Shown one piece after another: positions 1 through 64,000 of a stretch of DNA of 64,000 nt. The translations under genes and the position numbers were made by a program. This stretch comes from Dictyostelium discoideum (Eukaryota). Numbering within the stretch: position 1 is the first letter of the stretch; each line of letters begins with the position of its first letter. Where the stretch lies: assembly GCA_000004695.1 (NCBI GenBank), contig CM000153.2:1-64000 (forward strand). The letters are read 5' to 3'. The notes below the pieces were generated by a model. The model worked only from the letters and a program-made list of their open reading frames with translations. It was not told the origin of the DNA and did not search any database.

Positions 1-100
1 NNNNNNNNNNNNNNNNNNNNNNNNNNNNNNNNNNNNNNNNNNNNNNNNNNNNNNNNNNNNNNNNNNNNNNNNNNNNNNNNNNNNNNNNNNNNNNNNNNNN
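1..100. other. assembly gap (run of N)
   Basis: 100 consecutive n characters at the start of the window. Confidence 0.99.
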
Positions 101-993
101 CACCATCTCAAGCTGTTGGTATTGTACCTTTGTTTATTAAAGTTCAATCAGAACAAGACTCTCAATCAATTGGTGTTTCAGATGTTTCAAATGAAGAAAG
201 AACAGCTATTATTCTTGAAAATCTCACAAGTTACCAAAATCAATGGAATTCAAAACCACCAAAGGGATTGAAAGTTGGTGATACTGTACTCTTTCTAGAA
301 ATTAAAAAAAATAATGATTTAAAAGTAATTAAAACATAAAGATTAATAATATATGAAACAGTAATAATTAACAAATTTTATATTTAATTCTAATAGAAAA
401 TATTGATTTTGTGTAAAATTCATAAGGTAATACAAGAAGACACTAAACAACTTGAATTTTTGGAAGATGGAATCAATAGCCTTCAAAAAAAAGGTTCATA
501 CTCTGGTTTTGTAGGAGGTAACAAGTTGGTTCTTTATAAACAATCAACAGTTGATATTTTTAGAACATCGCCAAACATACAAAAAGATATAGATTCTTTT
601 ACTTCTGGTCTTTATTTAAATAATGATGGGAAAGTTATTGAATTTCTGCATCAATTGGTAACACAAAATGATCCATTTAGGGTTTTGGAAGATGCTCTTA
701 ACAATCCATCAAATATTCCACCTATCATTAACGATAATCCATTTCAACACAAACTCAATAATGAAATGGAACAAGAAGAAATACTCCCATTTTTAAATAA
801 TAATCCAACAGCGCCAAATTTAATGAATTGTTTGAGACAGGATATGAATTTAAAAGAAATAGTACCACCAATACCTCAAGTACAAATAATACCATCATAT
901 ACTATACCACAATCTGGTAGAGGTATAGTAACAACTGTTAAACGTCTCAGAGGCCGTCCTCATAAGATACCAATTGTTAATAAACCTCCTTAA
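101..993 (+). CDS. 3' part of a gene that continues upstream of the window; hypothetical protein with a C-terminal AT-hook-like RGRP motif. Exons 101..324 and 397..993.
   Basis: The reading frame is open from base 101, the gap edge, so the gene continues upstream of the window. The ORF 130-339 ends ...NNDLK and is followed directly by GTAATT. A 72-bp AT-rich intron ends in TAATAG at 391-396. The next exon keeps phase 0 (KILILCKIHKV...) and runs to a TAA at 991-993. The C-terminus GRGIVTTVKRLRGRPHKIPIV resembles an AT-hook. No family was recognised. Confidence 0.45.
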
Positions 994-1004
994 AAATCAC
1001 ATTC

Positions 1005-1215
1005 TAAACCATCCAAATTACCTCTCAAATCACCATCCAAATCACCTCTCAAACTAACATCCAAATCACCATCCATTTCACCTTCCTCACCACCTTTTAA
1101 ATCACCATTTAAATCACCTTCCAATTAACCATTTAAATCACCATTTAAATCACCTCCCAAATCACCTCCCAAATCACCTCCCAAATCACCTTCCAAATCA
1201 CCTTCCAAATCACCA
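1005..1215. repeat. 12-bp-period minisatellite (CAAATCACCTCC-like units, about 17 copies, degenerate)
   Basis: Direct tandem units such as 'ccaaatcacctcc'/'ccaaatcaccttc' are visible. The minus-strand ORF 1125-1400 simply translates them as (GDLE/GDLG)n. Confidence 0.85.
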
Positions 1216-1376
1216 TCAATAGGAAAAATCGTTAATGTGATACCTTCAAAAAAAGTTGCAAAAACAAAGATAACAAGGACACAAAAATTAGAACTTGATT
1301 TGGTTGCAATTAATAGAAGGGGGTATGGGGAAATTAGAAAATAAAAACAAGTGGCCAAATCAAAAAAACAAAAAAA

Positions 1377-1432
1377 ACACAAATCAACACAAATCAACAC
1401 AAATCAACACAAATCAACACAAATCAACACAA
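1377..1432. repeat. 10-bp tandem repeat (ACACAAATCA)x5
   Basis: Five perfect copies of 'acacaaatca' are followed by poly-A. Confidence 0.9.
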
Positions 1433-1621
1433 AAAAATTAAAAAAAAAAAAAAAAATTAAAAATTAAAAAAAAAAAAAAATTGTAAAAAATAAAAAAAAA
1501 TTACATTTGTTAAAAAAAATAAAAAAAATAAAAAAAAATAAAACTTAAAAAAAATTGAAAAAACAAAATAAAAAAAAAAAAATTGAAAAAACAAAATAAA
1601 AAAAAATTTCAAAAAAAAAGA

Positions 1622-1933
1622 ATGATCGAAGAATTAATAGATTCGATAAAACTCTTAAGAAATTTAGCCATTGAATATGGCAATGAAGAATAGTTAGATT
1701 TAGAGGAAAATTTGACTAAATTCCTCGAAAAAGCAGCCAAAGTACTATATGTAAATAGTGGTGATGCTTTCGTTAAAAATTCAAATATGATGTTAGAAGC
1801 ATTAGAATTAAAATCAAAACAATTTCACCAACATTGTGTAAAAACTGTAATAGAAAACGAATTATATTTGGACTTTTTTTGTCAAGGTAGGATACAAAGG
1901 AATATGCAAAAACCTCAAATGCACCAGAGGTAA
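1622..1933 (+). other. two short adjacent ORFs, MIEELIDSIKLLRNLAIEYGNEE* and LTKFLEKAAKVLYVNSGDAFVK...FFCQ, ending at a GGTAGG; possible degenerate element-derived or orphan coding fragment
   Basis: Codon usage looks non-random in an otherwise poly-A/T context. There is no ATG-initiated long ORF and no homology I can recognise. It lies at the edge of the repeat cluster. Confidence 0.15.
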
Positions 1934-2169
1934 CAAAGGTAGAAAAAATTCAATTGGGGGCAGGGGTTACAGGGGTATGGTAAATCAAGCCATTGAACAA
2001 CTCAGGGAGGTTATTAAAATTAATTTATTAAAATTAATTTAAAAAAAAAAAATTGGAAAAAAAAAAAAATTTACAATAATAATAAATTAAATTATTATTT
2101 AAACCAAAAATTAAATTACCATTTTATTAACCAATTAAAATTGGAAAAAATTTTAAAAAAAAAAATTGG

Positions 2170-2201
<32 letters not shown>

Positions 2202-2565
2202 ATCAATAAAAATAATAATTAAAACAAAAAAAAAATTTTAATTTAATAAACAAATAAAGGTCAGTGATTTTTTTTTTCACTGCGCTACTGTAGTGAAATT
2301 AAATAATAAAATTCACTACGTTACTGTAGTGAAATTTTATGGAAAATTCCCTACACAATAAATAATAATTTAATAATGAAACGTATTGTATACGTTCCAA
2401 ATCTCGCATTTTTCGTTGTTTTTGTAAAAACGAAATATGTCAAAAAATTTAAAAATATAGTTTTTTCACTAATACATTTTTCATTATTAAAAACATCGTG
2501 TAATTTATTATCTTTAATGTTTTATTAGAATATCTATTTAGAATTAAACAATAAACTTTTTCGAA

Positions 2566-2760
2566 TTAAAATTATCGTAAAAACTACCTTTAAAATTACC
2601 TTAAAAATTACCTTTAAAATTACCTTAAAAATGAATTTTTTAACGCGGCTTTAAATTCAATTTAAATCCAATTTAAATCAAATTTGCTTTAAATTTGCTT
2701 TAAAGGTGGTTTTTTCTTCGCTGTGTAACTGTGGTTATAATTTTATCATTTAACGCGCTA
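2566..2760 (+). repeat. copy A of an unclassified interspersed element terminus: (TACCTTTAAAATTACC)n, then GATTTAAATTGGATTTAAAT..., ending ...CTTTAAAGGTGGTTTTTTCTTCGCTGTGT
   Basis: The same ~190-bp sequence recurs inverted at 5085-5300 and direct at 5800-5935, within about 3.5 kb. It is probably a Dictyostelium transposon or retroelement end. I cannot name the family from sequence alone. Confidence 0.6.
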
Positions 2761-3256
2761 CCTAACGTATGAACAATCTAAAGAGGCCCCATTGCGCTAC
2801 AATATAAATCAGATGATGATAATCAAGGTTTCGGAACACATGCAACTGCTTCAAAAAAAATTGAATTACAATGGAGAAATGAAAACCCCATGGGGGGATG
2901 AAGCTGGGAAGTAAATTCCGGATTTTTTAGAAAAATCGCTTAGAAAGGGAGCGGCTTGTAGAAGCATTTTAAAGAGACAAGGCCTGGTTAACGCGGAGCG
3001 TTATATACATGAGCCAGTGCCTAAGTTAGTATTTTGTATTTAATATTATAAAAAAATAAATAAATAAATGAAAAAATAGGATATAATAAATAAAAAAATA
3101 AATAATTATTAAAAAAAAAATAAAAAATTTAAAAAAATAAAAAATAAAAAAAATTACTGTTGTAAATGTAAAAGTCACTCACACTAATCTTCAATCCATT
3201 GTCACCTTTGTTCAATCTTTAATCGAACTAGTCCAATCTTTAATCTAATTATTTAA

Positions 3257-3631
3257 TTAATTCCACATGAAGGATAGAAAGAGTGAAAGACTAATATCAT
3301 AATGTAACAACTGGTGGTCGGTATCATCAGTGTTAATTTTTCCTAATGATTTCTTTATTGTGTTGGTTATTGCTGCTGAAGTTATTGGTGTTGTAATGTT
3401 GGGTGATGATGGTGGTGTCGTATTGTTATTCAATTGTTGTTGAGATTGTTGATTTACTAATTGAATGTGTTGTTGAAGAAGTTGATTTTGTTTATCTATT
3501 ACCTGCTGCTGTTCCCTTATCTGACGTTGCTGTTCATTGAATGTTGATACCTGTGGTTGTTGTTGTTGTTCCTCATTATCCTGTTGTTGCAATTCATCAT
3601 TATCAATATCTTCGTTATTATTAGTTGACAT
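3257..3631 (-). CDS. hypothetical Gln-rich small protein (124 aa, MSTNNNEDIDNDELQQQ...)
   Basis: ATG-initiated ORF with an AT-rich upstream region and a coiled-coil-like Q-rich composition. It sits inside the repeat cluster with no recognisable homology, so it may not be a real gene. Confidence 0.25.
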   Translation of the reverse strand: MSTNNNEDIDNDELQQQDNEEQQQQPQVSTFNEQQRQIREQQQVIDKQNQLLQQHIQLVNQQSQQQLNNNTTPPSSPNITTPITSAAITNTIKKSLGKINTDDTDHQLLHYDISLSLFLSFMWN

Positions 3632-3740
3632 TCTCTTAAAATAAATTATTTAATAAAATTTAATTATTTATTTATTCTATTATTAAAGTGAAATGATTAA
3701 TTATTTAAGAAATAAATGTACACAAAATTAATTAATGACC

Positions 3741-3862
3741 GTAGCCCTATCGTGTTTTTATTATTTGTATATATTTATTACTGAGGTTGAATTGGAAACC
3801 TAGTTTCCTTTTTATAGTCCTTAGATTTGAGCGAACTCAAATCTATTAACTACTCCAACCTC
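3741..3862. other. GC-enriched nested-stem structured element (candidate ncRNA or foldback element)
   Basis: An outer inverted repeat GCCCTATCG...CGATAGGGT encloses a 7-bp inverted repeat GAGGTTG...CAACCTC. That in turn encloses two perfect hairpins, GGAAAC-cta-GTTTCC and TTTGAG-cgaa-CTCAAA. The GC content is well above the flanks. Confidence 0.35.
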
Positions 3863-4046
3863 GGCCGATAGGGTTAAAATAATATAATATTGTGTTAAAA
3901 TTGGATCTAATTTAATTATTATTTTCTCTTCTAATTAAATTATTTTTAAATTTTTATTATTATTTTATATGGTGATTTTGTGTGTGACATTTTTAATATC
4001 TGGTATCTAATATCTGTTATGAAAACTTTTTGTGAAATTCAAATTA

Positions 4047-4094
<48 letters not shown>

Positions 4095-5084
4095 AAAATT
4101 AAATTTAATTTAAAATTAATTAAATTTAATTACAACGGGAGAAAACCCCTTTAAACAAAACAATAAAATAAATTATTATTATTTTCTGAATTGTATGTGT
4201 CATAACAAAATGTTGAAACAAAACTATATTCTGAATTATTATTATTTATTTTTGAATTATTGTTTAGTTGTGTTTAGTGAGTTTATTATATAAAATGAAA
4301 CAATTTATTAAAATGAATTAAGTTAGTAATAATTAATATTGAATTATCAATTCAATATTAATAGTTATTTTTAAATGTTCTGTTTAGAACATTTCATAAA
4401 ATTAAATAAATATTAGTATTAACAAGATATTTTTTTGAGATCTTGTTACACATAAAAGTAAATATACAGATAATTAAAAGTAAGGTCGTTATGAAACTAA
4501 ACCGAAAATCAGAATTTTTATTGTTTTTTTAAATTTTAATTTAATTTAATTTAATTTAATTTAATTTTTTATTTTTCAACTGAAAAAATAAAAAATTAAA
4601 AAATAAAAATTAAAATTAAATCAAATATTTTTACATGGAGATGCGCGAATTTGTTACGTTGTTGAGCTCATACTAACTTTAAATTAATTTAGTTTTGAGT
4701 CTCTAACAGTAAAACTATTATTAATCTAAGAAATTTCGTTTACCATTCTTAGATTAATAATAGTTTTATATTATTTATATTTATATTATTTAATTTTTTT
4801 TTTATTTTTTTTAATTTTAATTTTTTTTTGTTGGTTATACACAACAAATTCAAAATGTGGTGTCCCTTTGTTAAGTGGAAATTTTTATATGGCAAAAAAA
4901 AAGAATTTTCTTTTACGTCTATGTTTTAAACAACTAAAACCAGTTTATACCAAAATAAAATAAAAAATTAATATTTAACAGTGGACCTATCAGTGAAAAA
5001 TTGAATTAATTCTGAATAAATAAAGTTGTTTTGAAAAAGATCGAGTTACCAGGAGGAAGTTGCACAGCAAAGAAAAATGCACCT

Positions 5085-5300
5085 TTAAAGCAAATTTAAA
5101 GAAAAGTTGATTTAAATTGGATTTAAATTGAATTTAAAGCCGCGTTTAAAAAATTCATTTTTAAGGTAATTTTTAAGGTAATTTTTAAGATATTTAAAAA
5201 TGCCTTTAAAATTTGCTTTAAAATAATTTTTTAAGCAATTTTAAAGGTGATTTTAAAGGTGATTTTAAAGGTGATTTTTAAGGTAATTTTTAAGATAATT
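5085..5300 (-). repeat. copy B (inverted orientation) of the element terminus seen at 2566-2760, plus additional GGTGATTTTAAAGG and TAATTTTTAAGG sub-repeats
   Basis: The reverse complement of 5090-5200 matches 2600-2705 almost base-for-base: ...AAAATGAATTTTTTAA(A)CGCGGCTTTAAATTCAATTTAAATCCAATTTAAATCAA... The copy ends CTTTAAAGGTG before diverging. Confidence 0.6.
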
Positions 5301-5497
5301 TTTAAGATATTTAAAAATACCTTTAAAATTTATTTTAAATTAATTTTAAATAGGATTTAAAGTAGATTTAAAGTAGATTTAAAGTGAATTTAAATTTCCT
5401 TTAAACATAAATTTAAGGTTTTTAATAAAAAAGATCTAATTTTAGAACAAAAAAATGGGGATAAAATATTCTATCATTTTTAAATTTTCATCAAAGC

Positions 5498-5570
5498 AAT
5501 CAAATGGTGTAATGGTTGATGAGACTACCCTTTGATAGAGGGTCGGGGGATCGAATCCCTTTTGGTAATT
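5498..5570 (+). other. tRNA-like fragment
   Basis: It contains a B-box/T-arm-like GGGGGATCGAATCCC, a perfect anticodon-type stem-loop ACCCT-TTGATAG-AGGGT, and a D-loop-like TGGTGTAATGGTTGA. I could not fold a complete cloverleaf: there is no acceptor stem and the variable region is only 1 nt. It is therefore a pseudogene, fragment or SINE-like sequence. It lies among the element copies and next to an N gap. Confidence 0.25.
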
Positions 5571-5675
5571 TTTGAAAAAATTAAAAAAAAAATTTTAAAA
5601 AATTTATCCGTTAAATAACGGCTTCGAACTCAGGACCTCGCTTTTAAAGCGATTAAAAAGGTAATTTTAAAGGTA

Positions 5676-5775
5676 NNNNNNNNNNNNNNNNNNNNNNNNN
5701 NNNNNNNNNNNNNNNNNNNNNNNNNNNNNNNNNNNNNNNNNNNNNNNNNNNNNNNNNNNNNNNNNNNNNNNNNNN
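5676..5775. other. assembly gap (run of N)
   Basis: 100 n characters. The flanks are repeat copies, which is consistent with an unresolved repeat. Confidence 0.99.
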
Positions 5776-5799
5776 CCCCCCAAAACCTTTTGTCTTTTT

Positions 5800-5935
5800 A
5801 AGGTGATTTTAAAGTAACCTTAAAAATTACCTTTAAAATTACCTTTAAAATTGCTTTAATTCAGGACTTTAAAGCAAATTTAAATTTAATTTAAAGCGAA
5901 TTTAAAGGTGGTTTTTTCTTCGCTGTGTGGGTTGG
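5800..5935 (+). repeat. copy C (direct orientation) of the element terminus, ending CTTTAAAGGTGGTTTTTTCTTCGCTGTGTGGGTTGG
   Basis: Matches 2690-2745 closely: (TACCTTTAAAATTACC) units, then GCAAATTTAAATTTAATTTAAAGCGAATTTAAAGGTGGTTTTTTCTTCGCTGTGT. Confidence 0.6.
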
Positions 5936-5939
5936 AAAA

Positions 5940-7020
5940 AAGTTTTTTTTTTTTTTTTAAAATGTATTATTTAAAACAAAAATTTTATATAATATTAAAC
6001 AATATTTGTTATGACAATTGTGGAATTAAATTTAGTATGTAGTTATAGAGAAATAAAGAAAATATAAAAAAAATGAACTTCGAAAAAAAAGGAGCTTCAA
6101 AAAAAAAAAACTATATATAAAATAAATCCTTTATTTTAGCCCCAGTATTTCTGATTTTTTTTGTAAATCATTCTTTTATTTTATTTATTTTTTTTATATA
6201 TATTTTTTTTTTTAATTGTTAATAAAAAAAAAAAAAAAAAAAAAAAAATAATATGGCCAGTGAAAAATTTTTCGCGAAAAGATTGATCTTTTCAGGGAAA
6301 ACTCGATCTTTTTCAAAATAACTTTATTTATTCAAGAATTAATTCAATTATTCACTGATAGTTTCTAAATTGTGGGTATTTTGTTAAAAAAAAAAAATAA
6401 AAAAATTTGCTGGTTTGGATTAATTTTTTTTATTTTTTTATTGGACCTTTCTGTGAATAATTGAATTAATTCTGAACAAAAAAAGTTATTTTGAAAAAGT
6501 TCGAGTTATCCCGGAAAAGATAAATCTTTTGGCGAAAAATTTTTCATTTTTCATATTATTTTTTTTTTTTAATTTTTTTCATTTATTCACAATTAAAATA
6601 AAAATTATAATAAATAAATAAATAAAATAAATAGTATGATTGACAAAAAAAAATCAAAAATACCGGGGCTCAAATAAAGGATATATTTTTTATATGTAGT
6701 TTTTTTTTTTTTGAAGTTCCTTTTTTTTTTTCGAAGTTCATTTTTTTTTTATTTCCTTTATTTCTCTATAAATACAACCAAATTTAATTCTACGATAGGT
6801 CTTAACAAATATTGTTTAATATTATTTAAAATTTTTGTTTTAAATGTGTTTTATTAAAAAAAAAAAAAAAAAAACATATGAAAAGTGAAAAATTTTTCAA
6901 AAAAAAATAAACTTTTTTTGAAATAACTGAATTTATTCCGGGATAACTCGATCTTTTTCAAAATAACTTTATTTATTCAGAATTAATTCAATTATCCACT
7001 GAAAGGTCCATTTTAAAAAA
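5940..7020. mobile_element. ~1.1 kb imperfect palindromic (foldback) non-coding element built from inverted ~70-bp core repeats (GGACCTATCAGTGAATAATTGAATTAATTCTGAA...GATCGAGTTA)
   Basis: 5945-6150 is the reverse complement of 6660-6840. Examples are AACAATATTTGTTATGACAATTGTGGAATTAAATTTAGT versus ...AAATTTAATTCTACGATAGGTCTTAACAAATATTGTT, and GAACTTCGAAAAAAAAGGAGCTTCAAAAA versus TTTGAAGTTCC...TTCGAAGTTC. The core repeats at 6290-6365 and 6945-7012 are inverted relative to 6441-6512. Further core copies lie at 4985-5060 and 8812-8915. There is no ORF. Confidence 0.55.
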
Positions 7021-57795: not shown

Positions 57796-58860
57796 ATACC
57801 ACGAATAATATTACCATTTTCATCATAGATTTTATCCATATATCTTGATTCTTCTTCATAATCATCTTCCTCTTCTTCTTCTTCCTCTTCTTCATAATCT
57901 TCTTCCTCTTCTTCTTCCTCATTTTCATCAAAACTATTCTCATCTACCCCTCCTCTGAGTTTTTTCTTTTTCTCTAAAAATGAATTTAATTTAACTTTCT
58001 TTTTATCTGTTTTATTAGAGTTATCATCAATTTTAATAGAATAGAGTTCTTTTAATTCTTGTTCAGTTAGATGTCTCCATTTACCTAAACCCAAATCACC
58101 CAATTCAACTGGACCAATTCTTGTTCTATGAATTTCAACTGCTTTATTCTCGGTTGATGCAAACATTCTTCTAATTTGATGATATCTACCCTCGTATAAT
58201 GTAACCTTTACTTTATTTTTCTCTTTATCTAAAACTTGTAATTTTGCTGGTTTACATGGCGTTGACTCACCTCTTAACATTATTTTACCACTTTCAAATA
58301 CTTCTGCCTCATCACCAACTAATTTATCTTTTAATACTACTTCATAATCTTTACCACAACCATCATCTTTTGGTGATATAATTCTCTTTTTTTTAAAGAA
58401 AAAGAAAAAAAAATTAAAAAAATAATTAAAAAAATTGAAAAAAAATAAAAAAATAAAACTAATAAAATTTACATACATCAACTAATTTACCATCTTGACT
58501 CAAAACAACAAGACCAGTTACCCATTTATCTAATCTACCAGCAATTGAAAGTGTTGGTTTTCTTTTAAAAAATTCTTTTGGTAAAATATCATAGATAATT
58601 TTATGATCGTGATCATTAACTGTTGAACAAATGTAACCACTTGGTTTATGAACTGCAATATGTAATGTTTCACCATTTTCAATTGGTTCGCCATCAATTT
58701 GAATATCCTTTATATTTGCTTTGGTTGCTGGTGTTACTTTTTTACCTAAAACTGTGACCCTTTTGTCTCTAAGAAATTGTGGCACTCTACTTCTTTCACA
58801 AACACCAAGGTTTGATAATATTCTCTCAATTCTAAGTTTTTTACCAACTTTTAAAATCAT
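57054..58860 (-). CDS. RsuA/RluB-family RNA pseudouridine synthase with an S4-like N-terminus and a long acidic Glu/Asp-rich C-terminal extension (about 571 aa). Exons 58860..58477 and 58385..57054.
   Basis: The catalytic Asp motif is IAGRLDKWVTGLVVLSQDG (typical RsuA motif AGRLDxDTxGLLLLTNDG). Downstream is YEGRYHQIRRMFA. The intron is GAT|GTATGT...AAAAAG, 91 bp, in phase 0. The C-terminus is low-complexity (E/D)n, with poly-Thr encoded by (ACA)n. Confidence 0.75.
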
Positions 58861-59275
58861 TTTATTTTATTTTTTTTATTTTTTTTTTTATATAGAAAAA
58901 AAAAAATTTTGGTAAAAAATTAAATGTGGTAAATAAAAAATAAATGTGATAATTAAAAAAAAATGTGATAATTAAAAAAAAAAAAAAGTGATAATTAAAA
59001 AATAAATGTGATGATGGCAGACCAAGATTCGAAAAATAGGAAAAAATAAAAAATAAAAAAAATAAAATTTAAAAAAATAAAATAACGTTCTTGCCTTTGC
59101 TCAATTTTCAATTTTTTACTTTTTTTTTCAAAATTTTCGTTTTTTTTTTTTTTTTTTTTTTTTTTGTCCAGTTTAAAAGGCAGTTTTTTTTTTTTTTTTT
59201 TTTCATTCCAAAGGATAACAAAAAGTAAGTTTTATTATCAATTATAAAATATTATTTTATTAAAAGTGTAATTGT

Positions 59276-59396
59276 TTTTTAGCTGATGAAAACCTAGATG
59301 ACGAGTCATAATTCTCTACAAGGTTCACTTATTTGATTAGGTTTCCTAATACAAACGTTTACCTTGTCTGTTGATGATCTTTGGCCCTGATTAAAA
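59276..59396 (+). ncRNA. candidate box C/D snoRNA
   Basis: TTTTTAG-CTGATGA (box C-like, 59283-59289) ... TGACGA ... TGATGA (box C'-like, 59363-59368) ... GGCC-CTGA (box D, 59387-59390) -TTAAAA. The 5' TTTTAG and 3' TTAAAA can form the usual short terminal stem. It is intergenic and non-coding, with a higher GC content than the flanks. There is no canonical D' box (closest is CTGT) and the length is about 120 nt. Confidence 0.35.
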
Positions 59397-59447
59397 TTTA
59401 ATTCACTTTTTTTTTTTTTCACCACCCCAAAAAAAAAAAAAAACTGG

Positions 59448-59458
59448 AAGCCCATAAA
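59448..59458 (+). promoter_or_regulatory. DUSE-like motif (G)CCCATAA(AA), similar to the Dictyostelium upstream sequence element found about 60 nt upstream of Pol II/III small-RNA genes
   Basis: GAAGCCCATAAAAAT. My recollection of the DUSE consensus ([A/T]CCCA[C/T]AA) is from memory. It is a single occurrence, so only suggestive. Confidence 0.25.
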
Positions 59459-59514
59459 AATAATTGACTAACATTTTTTAAAATAATCTTTTTTTACCAG
59501 ATTCCTAAATGTAA

Positions 59515-59568
59515 AAAATACTTGAATGCCTTTTGCCCATTTTCTGCTGGTGACCCCTCTTAGAATTT
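59515..59568 (+). ncRNA. candidate short non-coding transcript downstream of the DUSE-like motif, ending in a T8 run
   Basis: About 60 nt downstream of CCCATAA there is a GC-enriched stretch, ACTTGAATGCCTTTTGCCCATTTTCTGCTGGTGACCCCTCTTAGAA, followed by TTTTTTTT. The size is in the range of Dictyostelium small ncRNAs. I did not find the conserved class I motif. Confidence 0.2.
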
Positions 59569-59861
59569 TTTTTAAAAAAAAAATTAATCTTTTATTGCTT
59601 TGTGATAATTTTACAATATGTTAAATTGCTCGTAATATTAATATTACTATTTAGATTTTAATTAAAAATAAATAAATAAATAATAAATGCAAATGGTTTT
59701 TTTTGAATTTTTAAAAAATAAATGCAAATGGTTTTTTTTTATTATTAAAATTGTTTTTTTTTTTTATATTTTTTTTTTATATTGTTTTTTTTTTATATAA
59801 ATTTTTGATTTGTTTATAATAACCAATTTAATCAAAAAATTTTATAAGGTATGAAAGTTTT

Positions 59862-60444: not shown

Positions 60445-64000
<3,556 letters not shown>

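Follow-up and report, generated by a model that had tools for sequence, protein, structure and literature searches.

The analysed DNA (hereafter the window) comprises positions 1 to 64,000 of the forward strand of contig CM000153.2 from Dictyostelium discoideum; between two protein reading frames, it contains the gene of the box C/D snoRNA DdR15 on the plus strand. The left neighbouring gene, a minus-strand gene whose ATG lies at position 58860, carries S4 and PseudoU_synth_2 domains, which bears out the label "pseudouridine synthase" given to it in the sequence-only reading (an earlier annotation of this DNA made from the letters alone); a homologue search with this protein found none in Dictyostelium and a single protein of 50% identity, which comes from a transcriptome-type source. 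The ORF on the right-hand side (1021 aa) gave no Pfam match. As no further snoRNA is listed nearby on chromosome 4 (Table S5, PMC8817022), the DdR15 gene seems to stand alone as an intergenic, monocistronic unit.

The Rfam scan of the full window returned only one match above the curated thresholds, RF01565 ("Dictyostelium snoRNA DdR15"; 135.9 bits at 59280-59392 (+), threshold 70, E 4.5e-18). The gathering threshold was exceeded across the full model: The alignment covers model positions 1 to 113 of 113 without truncation, and all 113 positions equal the consensus. The same interval is documented as "CD15" in Table S5 of Diesend et al. 2022 (Sci Rep 12:1952, PMC8817022), located on chromosome 4, 59280-59392, plus strand, with a length of 113 nt and a GC content of 36.28%, and Table S4 of that work specifies CUGAUGA as box C, CUGA as box D and a C-D gap of 97 nt; the window sequence agrees with the publication in the coordinates, the length, the G+C content, both boxes and the C-D gap (59290-59386). 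As the coordinates are identical, the window corresponds to nucleotides 1-64000 of D. discoideum chromosome 4. [quoted passage not shown] 2004 and later renamed CDx, with DdR15 among them. For CD15, an RNA-seq expression score is present in Table S4 and northern blots revealed shifts in abundance during development (PMC8817022); a DdR15 orthologue of D. giganteum has been reported in a 2026 preprint. RF01565 DdR15, CD15 at chr4:59280-59392 and the window element are the same molecule without any difference in sequence; the sole difference from the catalogue of 2022 is the published target label, Cm3281 as compared with Gm2554 according to the sequence (see below). The classification as box C/D snoRNA in the sequence-only reading is thus borne out by the Rfam match and the published CD15 entries in Tables S4 and S5. 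Its premise that a new snoRNA would be added fails, since DdR15 is real, expressed and catalogued already (cloned in 2004, with its own Rfam family and with published coordinates identical to those in the window). We regard it as almost certain that the element represents the gene of this known RNA, with a D' guide directed at 26S G2554 and a pre-D spacer that is probably without guide function.

The boxes C, C' and D that had been called from the sequence are all confirmed (see Table 1). In the mature RNA, 3 nt precede box C and 2 nt follow box D. The first position of box C is a C where RUGAUGA has a purine; Table S4 (PMC8817022) admits this C-initial box CUGAUGA for CD15 as well as for OR9. 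Both internal boxes, C' (UGAUGA) and D' (CAUA), are present, the latter being strongly degenerate and recognised by the register that the guide requires. The internal hairpin of roughly 49 nt is composed of an outer stem (ACAAGGU/ACCUUGU) and an inner stem (AUUAGG/CCUAAU); the fold energy of DdR15 is unremarkable (z -0.8 without and -1.05 with flanks). By analogy with the long inserts of other box C/D snoRNAs, this hairpin would juxtapose D' and C'.

Table 1. Position and basis of assignment of the structural elements of the DdR15 gene.
Feature	Position	Strand	Basis or remark
Mature box C/D snoRNA DdR15 (CD15 by coordinates), 113 nt, 36.3% G+C	59280..59392	+	RF01565, Table S5 (PMC8817022), composition
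Box C, CUGAUGA, RNA nt 4-10	59283..59289	+	Sequence; same box listed for CD15 in Table S4 (PMC8817022)
Guide segment	RNA nt 11-27	+	Between box C and D'
D' guide core UAGAUGACGAG, 11 Watson-Crick pairs with 26S 2551-2561	59295..59305	+	rDNA scan; Fig. S6 (PMC8817022)
Degenerate box D', CAUA, RNA nt 28-31	59307..59310	+	Register placing G2554 at position 5; CAUA in Fig. S6 (PMC8817022)
Internal hairpin, RNA nt 39-87	59318..59366	+	MFE and centroid structures, flanks included or omitted
Box C', UGAUGA, RNA nt 93-98	59372..59377	+	Sequence
9-nt spacer UCUUUGGCC upstream of box D, guide proposed in the sequence-only reading	59378..59386	+	Without convincing rRNA target
Box D, CUGA, RNA nt 108-111, followed by UU	59387..59390	+	Sequence; Table S4 (PMC8817022)
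5' half of flanking complementarity, UUUUAG	59277..59282	+	Only 59281-59282 inside mature RNA
3' half of flanking complementarity, UUAAAA	59391..59396	+	Only 59391-59392 inside mature RNA

In box C/D snoRNPs, fibrillarin methylates the nucleotide that is paired to the fifth guide position. The search for such a nucleotide was based on a metagenome contig of 9332 nt as rRNA reference (L003, Ga0307414_10002705; rDNA unit at 53-6558, minus strand), which was found in a metagenome collection via a D. discoideum-specific 26S 18-mer (Fig. S5, PMC8817022) as one of nine loci. The contig carries a complete rDNA unit (SSU 1618 bits, 5.8S 102 bits, LSU 2751 bits): 21 of 26 published D. discoideum rRNA fragments are contained exactly and four with one to three single-base indels, which are compatible with machine reading of the figure; the one remaining fragment, 26S-G711, is absent within 3 edits. 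The spacing of the sites equals the published numbering (e.g. 727 nt from G2554 to C3281); being of metagenomic origin, the reference may belong to a close relative of D. discoideum rather than to D. discoideum itself. As a separate observation, Dictyostelium-like rDNA with 17S, 5.8S and 26S is present in a JGI metagenome.

Scanned against this reference, the guide core upstream of D' pairs perfectly with 26S rRNA, its 11 contiguous Watson-Crick pairs corresponding to guide positions 2-12; this length was reached by one of 500 shuffled guides. C59302, the fifth nucleotide upstream of the D' box CAUA, pairs with G2554. Of the complementarity of at least 10 nt beside box D or D' by which the sequence-only reading had proposed to check its candidate, with the target at position 5 as expected of a methylation guide, the D' part stood (11 bp to 26S), whereas box D is preceded by runs of only 6-7 bp. 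Gm2554 belongs to the 49 RiboMeth-seq sites of high confidence and is aligned with yeast Gm2288 (snR75) and Arabidopsis Gm2278 (AtU15) (Table 1 in PMC8817022). The identical pairing, guide and CAUA included, is drawn in Fig. S6 as "CD14 - 26S-G2554: 5' CUAGAUGACGAGU CAUA" (PMC8817022), and CUAGAUGACGAGU CAUA is exactly the window sequence at 59294-59310. From pairing and register we infer that DdR15 directs the 2'-O-methylation of G2554 through its D' guide. As for other members of the family, the boxes C/D and C'/D' would be expected to assemble a snoRNP with Snu13, Nop56, Nop58 and fibrillarin; the pre-D' segment pairs with 26S 2551-2561, by which G2554 is set opposite the fifth nucleotide from D', and fibrillarin would then add the 2'-O-methyl group at this nucleotide.

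The assignment to Gm2554 is supported independently by two Rfam matches below the curated thresholds, to yeast snR75 (RF01185; 22.1 bits, E 0.005) and to plant SNOR75 (RF02539; 15.8 bits, E 1.1), which arise from the shared guide; with gathering thresholds of 40 and 50, respectively, the element does not qualify as a member of the snR75 family. The consensus of snR75 contains the identical D' guide 13-mer UAGAUGACGAGUC, and the same rRNA nucleotide is targeted (25S Gm2288, corresponding to Dictyostelium 26S Gm2554). In contrast to DdR15 with its CAUA and its internal hairpin, snR75 and SNOR75 have CUGA as box D'. The 3' halves of snR75 and DdR15 are unrelated: The snR75 consensus shows a long pre-D element, DdR15 merely the 9-nt spacer. 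Judged by guide and target, DdR15 corresponds functionally to yeast snR75 and to AtU15 in its action on Gm2278.

How far the boxes and the terminal stem alone identify a snoRNA has to be seen against the composition of the window. At snoRNA spacing, 17 NUGAUGA...CUGA pairs occur on its plus strand, eight of them flanked by a stem of 4 bp or more and three by one of 5 bp or more; the bare motif arrangement is therefore no better than chance here and is weak evidence in AT-rich DNA. The 5-bp terminal stem of the sequence-only reading holds insofar as UUUUAG (59277-59282) and UUAAAA (59391-59396) can pair, by five Watson-Crick pairs and one G.U; however, four of the six pairs lie outside the mature RNA and two within, and stems of this kind accompany 8 of the 17 chance pairs, so that they are without statistical distinction in AT-rich DNA. 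The published snoScan terminal stem of CD15 has 1 bp and is rated as "not likely formed" (Table S4, PMC8817022). The locus is set apart by its whole sequence and its G+C content rather than by the order of motifs: DdR15 constitutes a 36% G+C island, whereas the window has 22.5% G+C and the surrounding intergenic DNA 5-25%. The frequency of C..D pairs with A/U flanking stems and the ordinary overall fold energy would also be expected of a chance motif arrangement in AT-rich intergenic DNA or of a silent pseudogene copy; but neither accords with the full-length identity to a curated Rfam family derived from a cloned RNA, with the exact published coordinates and RNA-seq support (PMC8817022) or with an 11-bp guide that falls on a mapped methylation site, and this explanation can practically be dismissed.

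Another question is whether DdR15 might be a dual-guide RNA. The sequence-only reading had regarded the segment immediately upstream of box D as the rRNA guide; however, the distance from C' to D amounts to 9 nt only, so that its 12-nt guide UGAUCUUUGGCC must include nucleotides of box C' (3 nt). In the scan of 17S, 5.8S, 26S and the spacers of the reference contig, the pre-D segment paired with rRNA no better than expected by chance: Among Watson-Crick runs that include position 5, the longest comprises 6 bp for the spacer alone and 7 bp for the spacer plus C', values that are equalled by 99% and 73% of the shuffles, respectively, and its RNAduplex energy does not surpass that of the shuffles, either. 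The claim of a guide at this site is thereby not sustained for rRNA. That UGAUCUUUGGCC is nevertheless a working guide for rRNA or another RNA (snRNA, tRNA, mRNA) would agree with the canonical state of both C' and D and with the best near-match at 17S 36-45 (7 Watson-Crick pairs and 3 G.U), which places position 5 on A39, adjoining the mapped Cm38 (Table 1 in PMC8817022). Besides 17S 38-43 and 26S 1514-1519 and 2986-2991, 6-mers of the spacer pair with 26S 2542-2547, in the latter case by UUUGGC and directly 5' of the D' target. On the other hand, any pairing longer than 9 nt has to invade box C', the predicted position-5 nucleotides (17S A39, 26S A2545) are not among the 49 mapped sites (PMC8817022), and, as an indirect indication only, lower-case (less conserved) positions of the Rfam consensus account for four of nine in the spacer compared with one of 17 in the D' guide. 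A second working guide is therefore considered improbable, and the 9-nt spacer upstream of D is probably non-guiding.

The stretch of rRNA that is targeted by DdR15 is also the target of U15 (human SNORD15A/B, Arabidopsis AtU15) and of yeast snR13. AtU15 serves as guide for two sites, Am2271 and Gm2278, which correspond to Am2547 and Gm2554 in Dictyostelium; of these, Am2547 is one of three mapped methylation sites in D. discoideum without an assigned snoRNA (PMC8817022). The DdR15 spacer keeps UUUGGC, complementary to 26S GCCAAA at 2542-2547 and thus ending at A2547; a match of such length within 30 nt of G2554 is found for 2-5.5% of random spacers. However, the pairing comprises only 6 bp, and A2547 would fall at position 7 from box D instead of the required position 5, for which reason it is read at most as accessory pairing or as a remnant from a U15-like ancestor, and any function is unlikely. 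In particular, it is doubtful that UUUGGC serves as an accessory pairing aiding Gm2554 or as an out-of-register guide for Am2547. By its sequence, DdR15 would not qualify as a demonstrable Am2547 guide; it may have descended from a U15-like ancestor.

With regard to the target of the chromosome 4 locus, the entries in Diesend et al. 2022 disagree with each other. Table S5 gives 26S-Cm3281 as target for chr4:59280-59392 "CD15", and Table S7 names C3292 as D target and C3281 as D' target of CD15, whereas Gm2554 is assigned to "CD14" in Table 1 as well as in the pairing of Fig. S6 described above, and the same figure shows "CD15 - 26S-C3281: 5' CAAACUCAGCUCU AUGA" (PMC8817022). If the published table were correct, the chromosome 4 locus would guide 26S Cm3281, which is the site of yeast snR69, and C3292 would be a second target. 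The CD15 entries in Tables S5 and S7 are in favor of this assignment; the DNA itself is not. The printed Cm3281 guide, CAAACUCAGCUCU AUGA, has no occurrence anywhere in the 64-kb window; the complementarity of DdR15 to 26S 3265-3305 does not exceed 6 nt and is located inside the internal hairpin; and the fifth nucleotide ahead of box D is a U, which is unable to pair with a C target. In addition, the oligonucleotide listed for CD15 is identical to that of CD23 and not present in the window, whereas the one listed for CD14 is, with one mismatch, the reverse complement of window positions 59368-59386. The correctness of the table entry is thus extremely improbable, and Cm3281 and C3292 are ruled out on sequence as targets of this locus.

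Because the Cm3281 guide is absent and the complementarity is limited to 6 nt at most, the target in Table S5 is read as a label clash within the paper: The CD14/CD15 labels of Tables 1, S2, S5 and S7 appear to conflict with the pairing drawn in Fig. S6 (PMC8817022). Either the two labels are swapped between coordinate and target tables, or the "CD14" of chromosome 3 is a paralogue sharing the guide; Cm3281 is excluded both ways. The sequence of the chromosome 3 "CD14" (3885476-3885562) would distinguish between both: The presence of CAAACUCAGCUCU-AUGA and ...UCUCACGACAGUCUU-CUGA would mean that the target labels of CD14 and CD15 are swapped, the presence of CUAGAUGACGAGU-CAUA that a paralogue exists and Gm2554 has two guides. 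The practical value of the assignment of DdR15 to Gm2554 lies in curation, as D' and not D is the guide in use; re-users of the 2022 supplementary tables for snoRNA-target maps or knockouts are advised to check Cm3281 versus Gm2554.

The intergenic DNA on both sides of the DdR15 gene showed several further features. Between the start codon of the pseudouridine synthase and DdR15, five tandem units of approximately 20 nt (AAAAAATAAATGTGATAATT) are arranged at 19-23 nt spacing (58915-59016); the last copy continues into GTGATGATGG, and no CTGA follows. At 59407-59443, 15 nt past the 3' end of the snoRNA, a T13-CACCACCCC-A15 inverted repeat folds as a long A/U hairpin (z -1.7), which might, speculatively, take part in 3' end formation. 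Position 59451 marks the sole plus-strand copy in 64 kb of a DUSE-like CCCATAA, with AAATGTA located 56 nt downstream; the latter is followed by an island of 32-35% G+C (59490-59579) that terminates in a T8 run. With respect to a second ncRNA at 59451-59579, Rfam gave nothing at E<10, the predicted fold was not stable (z +1.2 to +1.6) and the sole ORF comprises 32 aa; the feature could be due to chance or represent an unannotated transcript or a UTR. Finally, two adjoining 35-nt units with the common sequence TAAATGCAAATGGTTTTTTTT are positioned at 59677-59746, ahead of the large ORF at 60445, and may constitute a repeated regulatory site.
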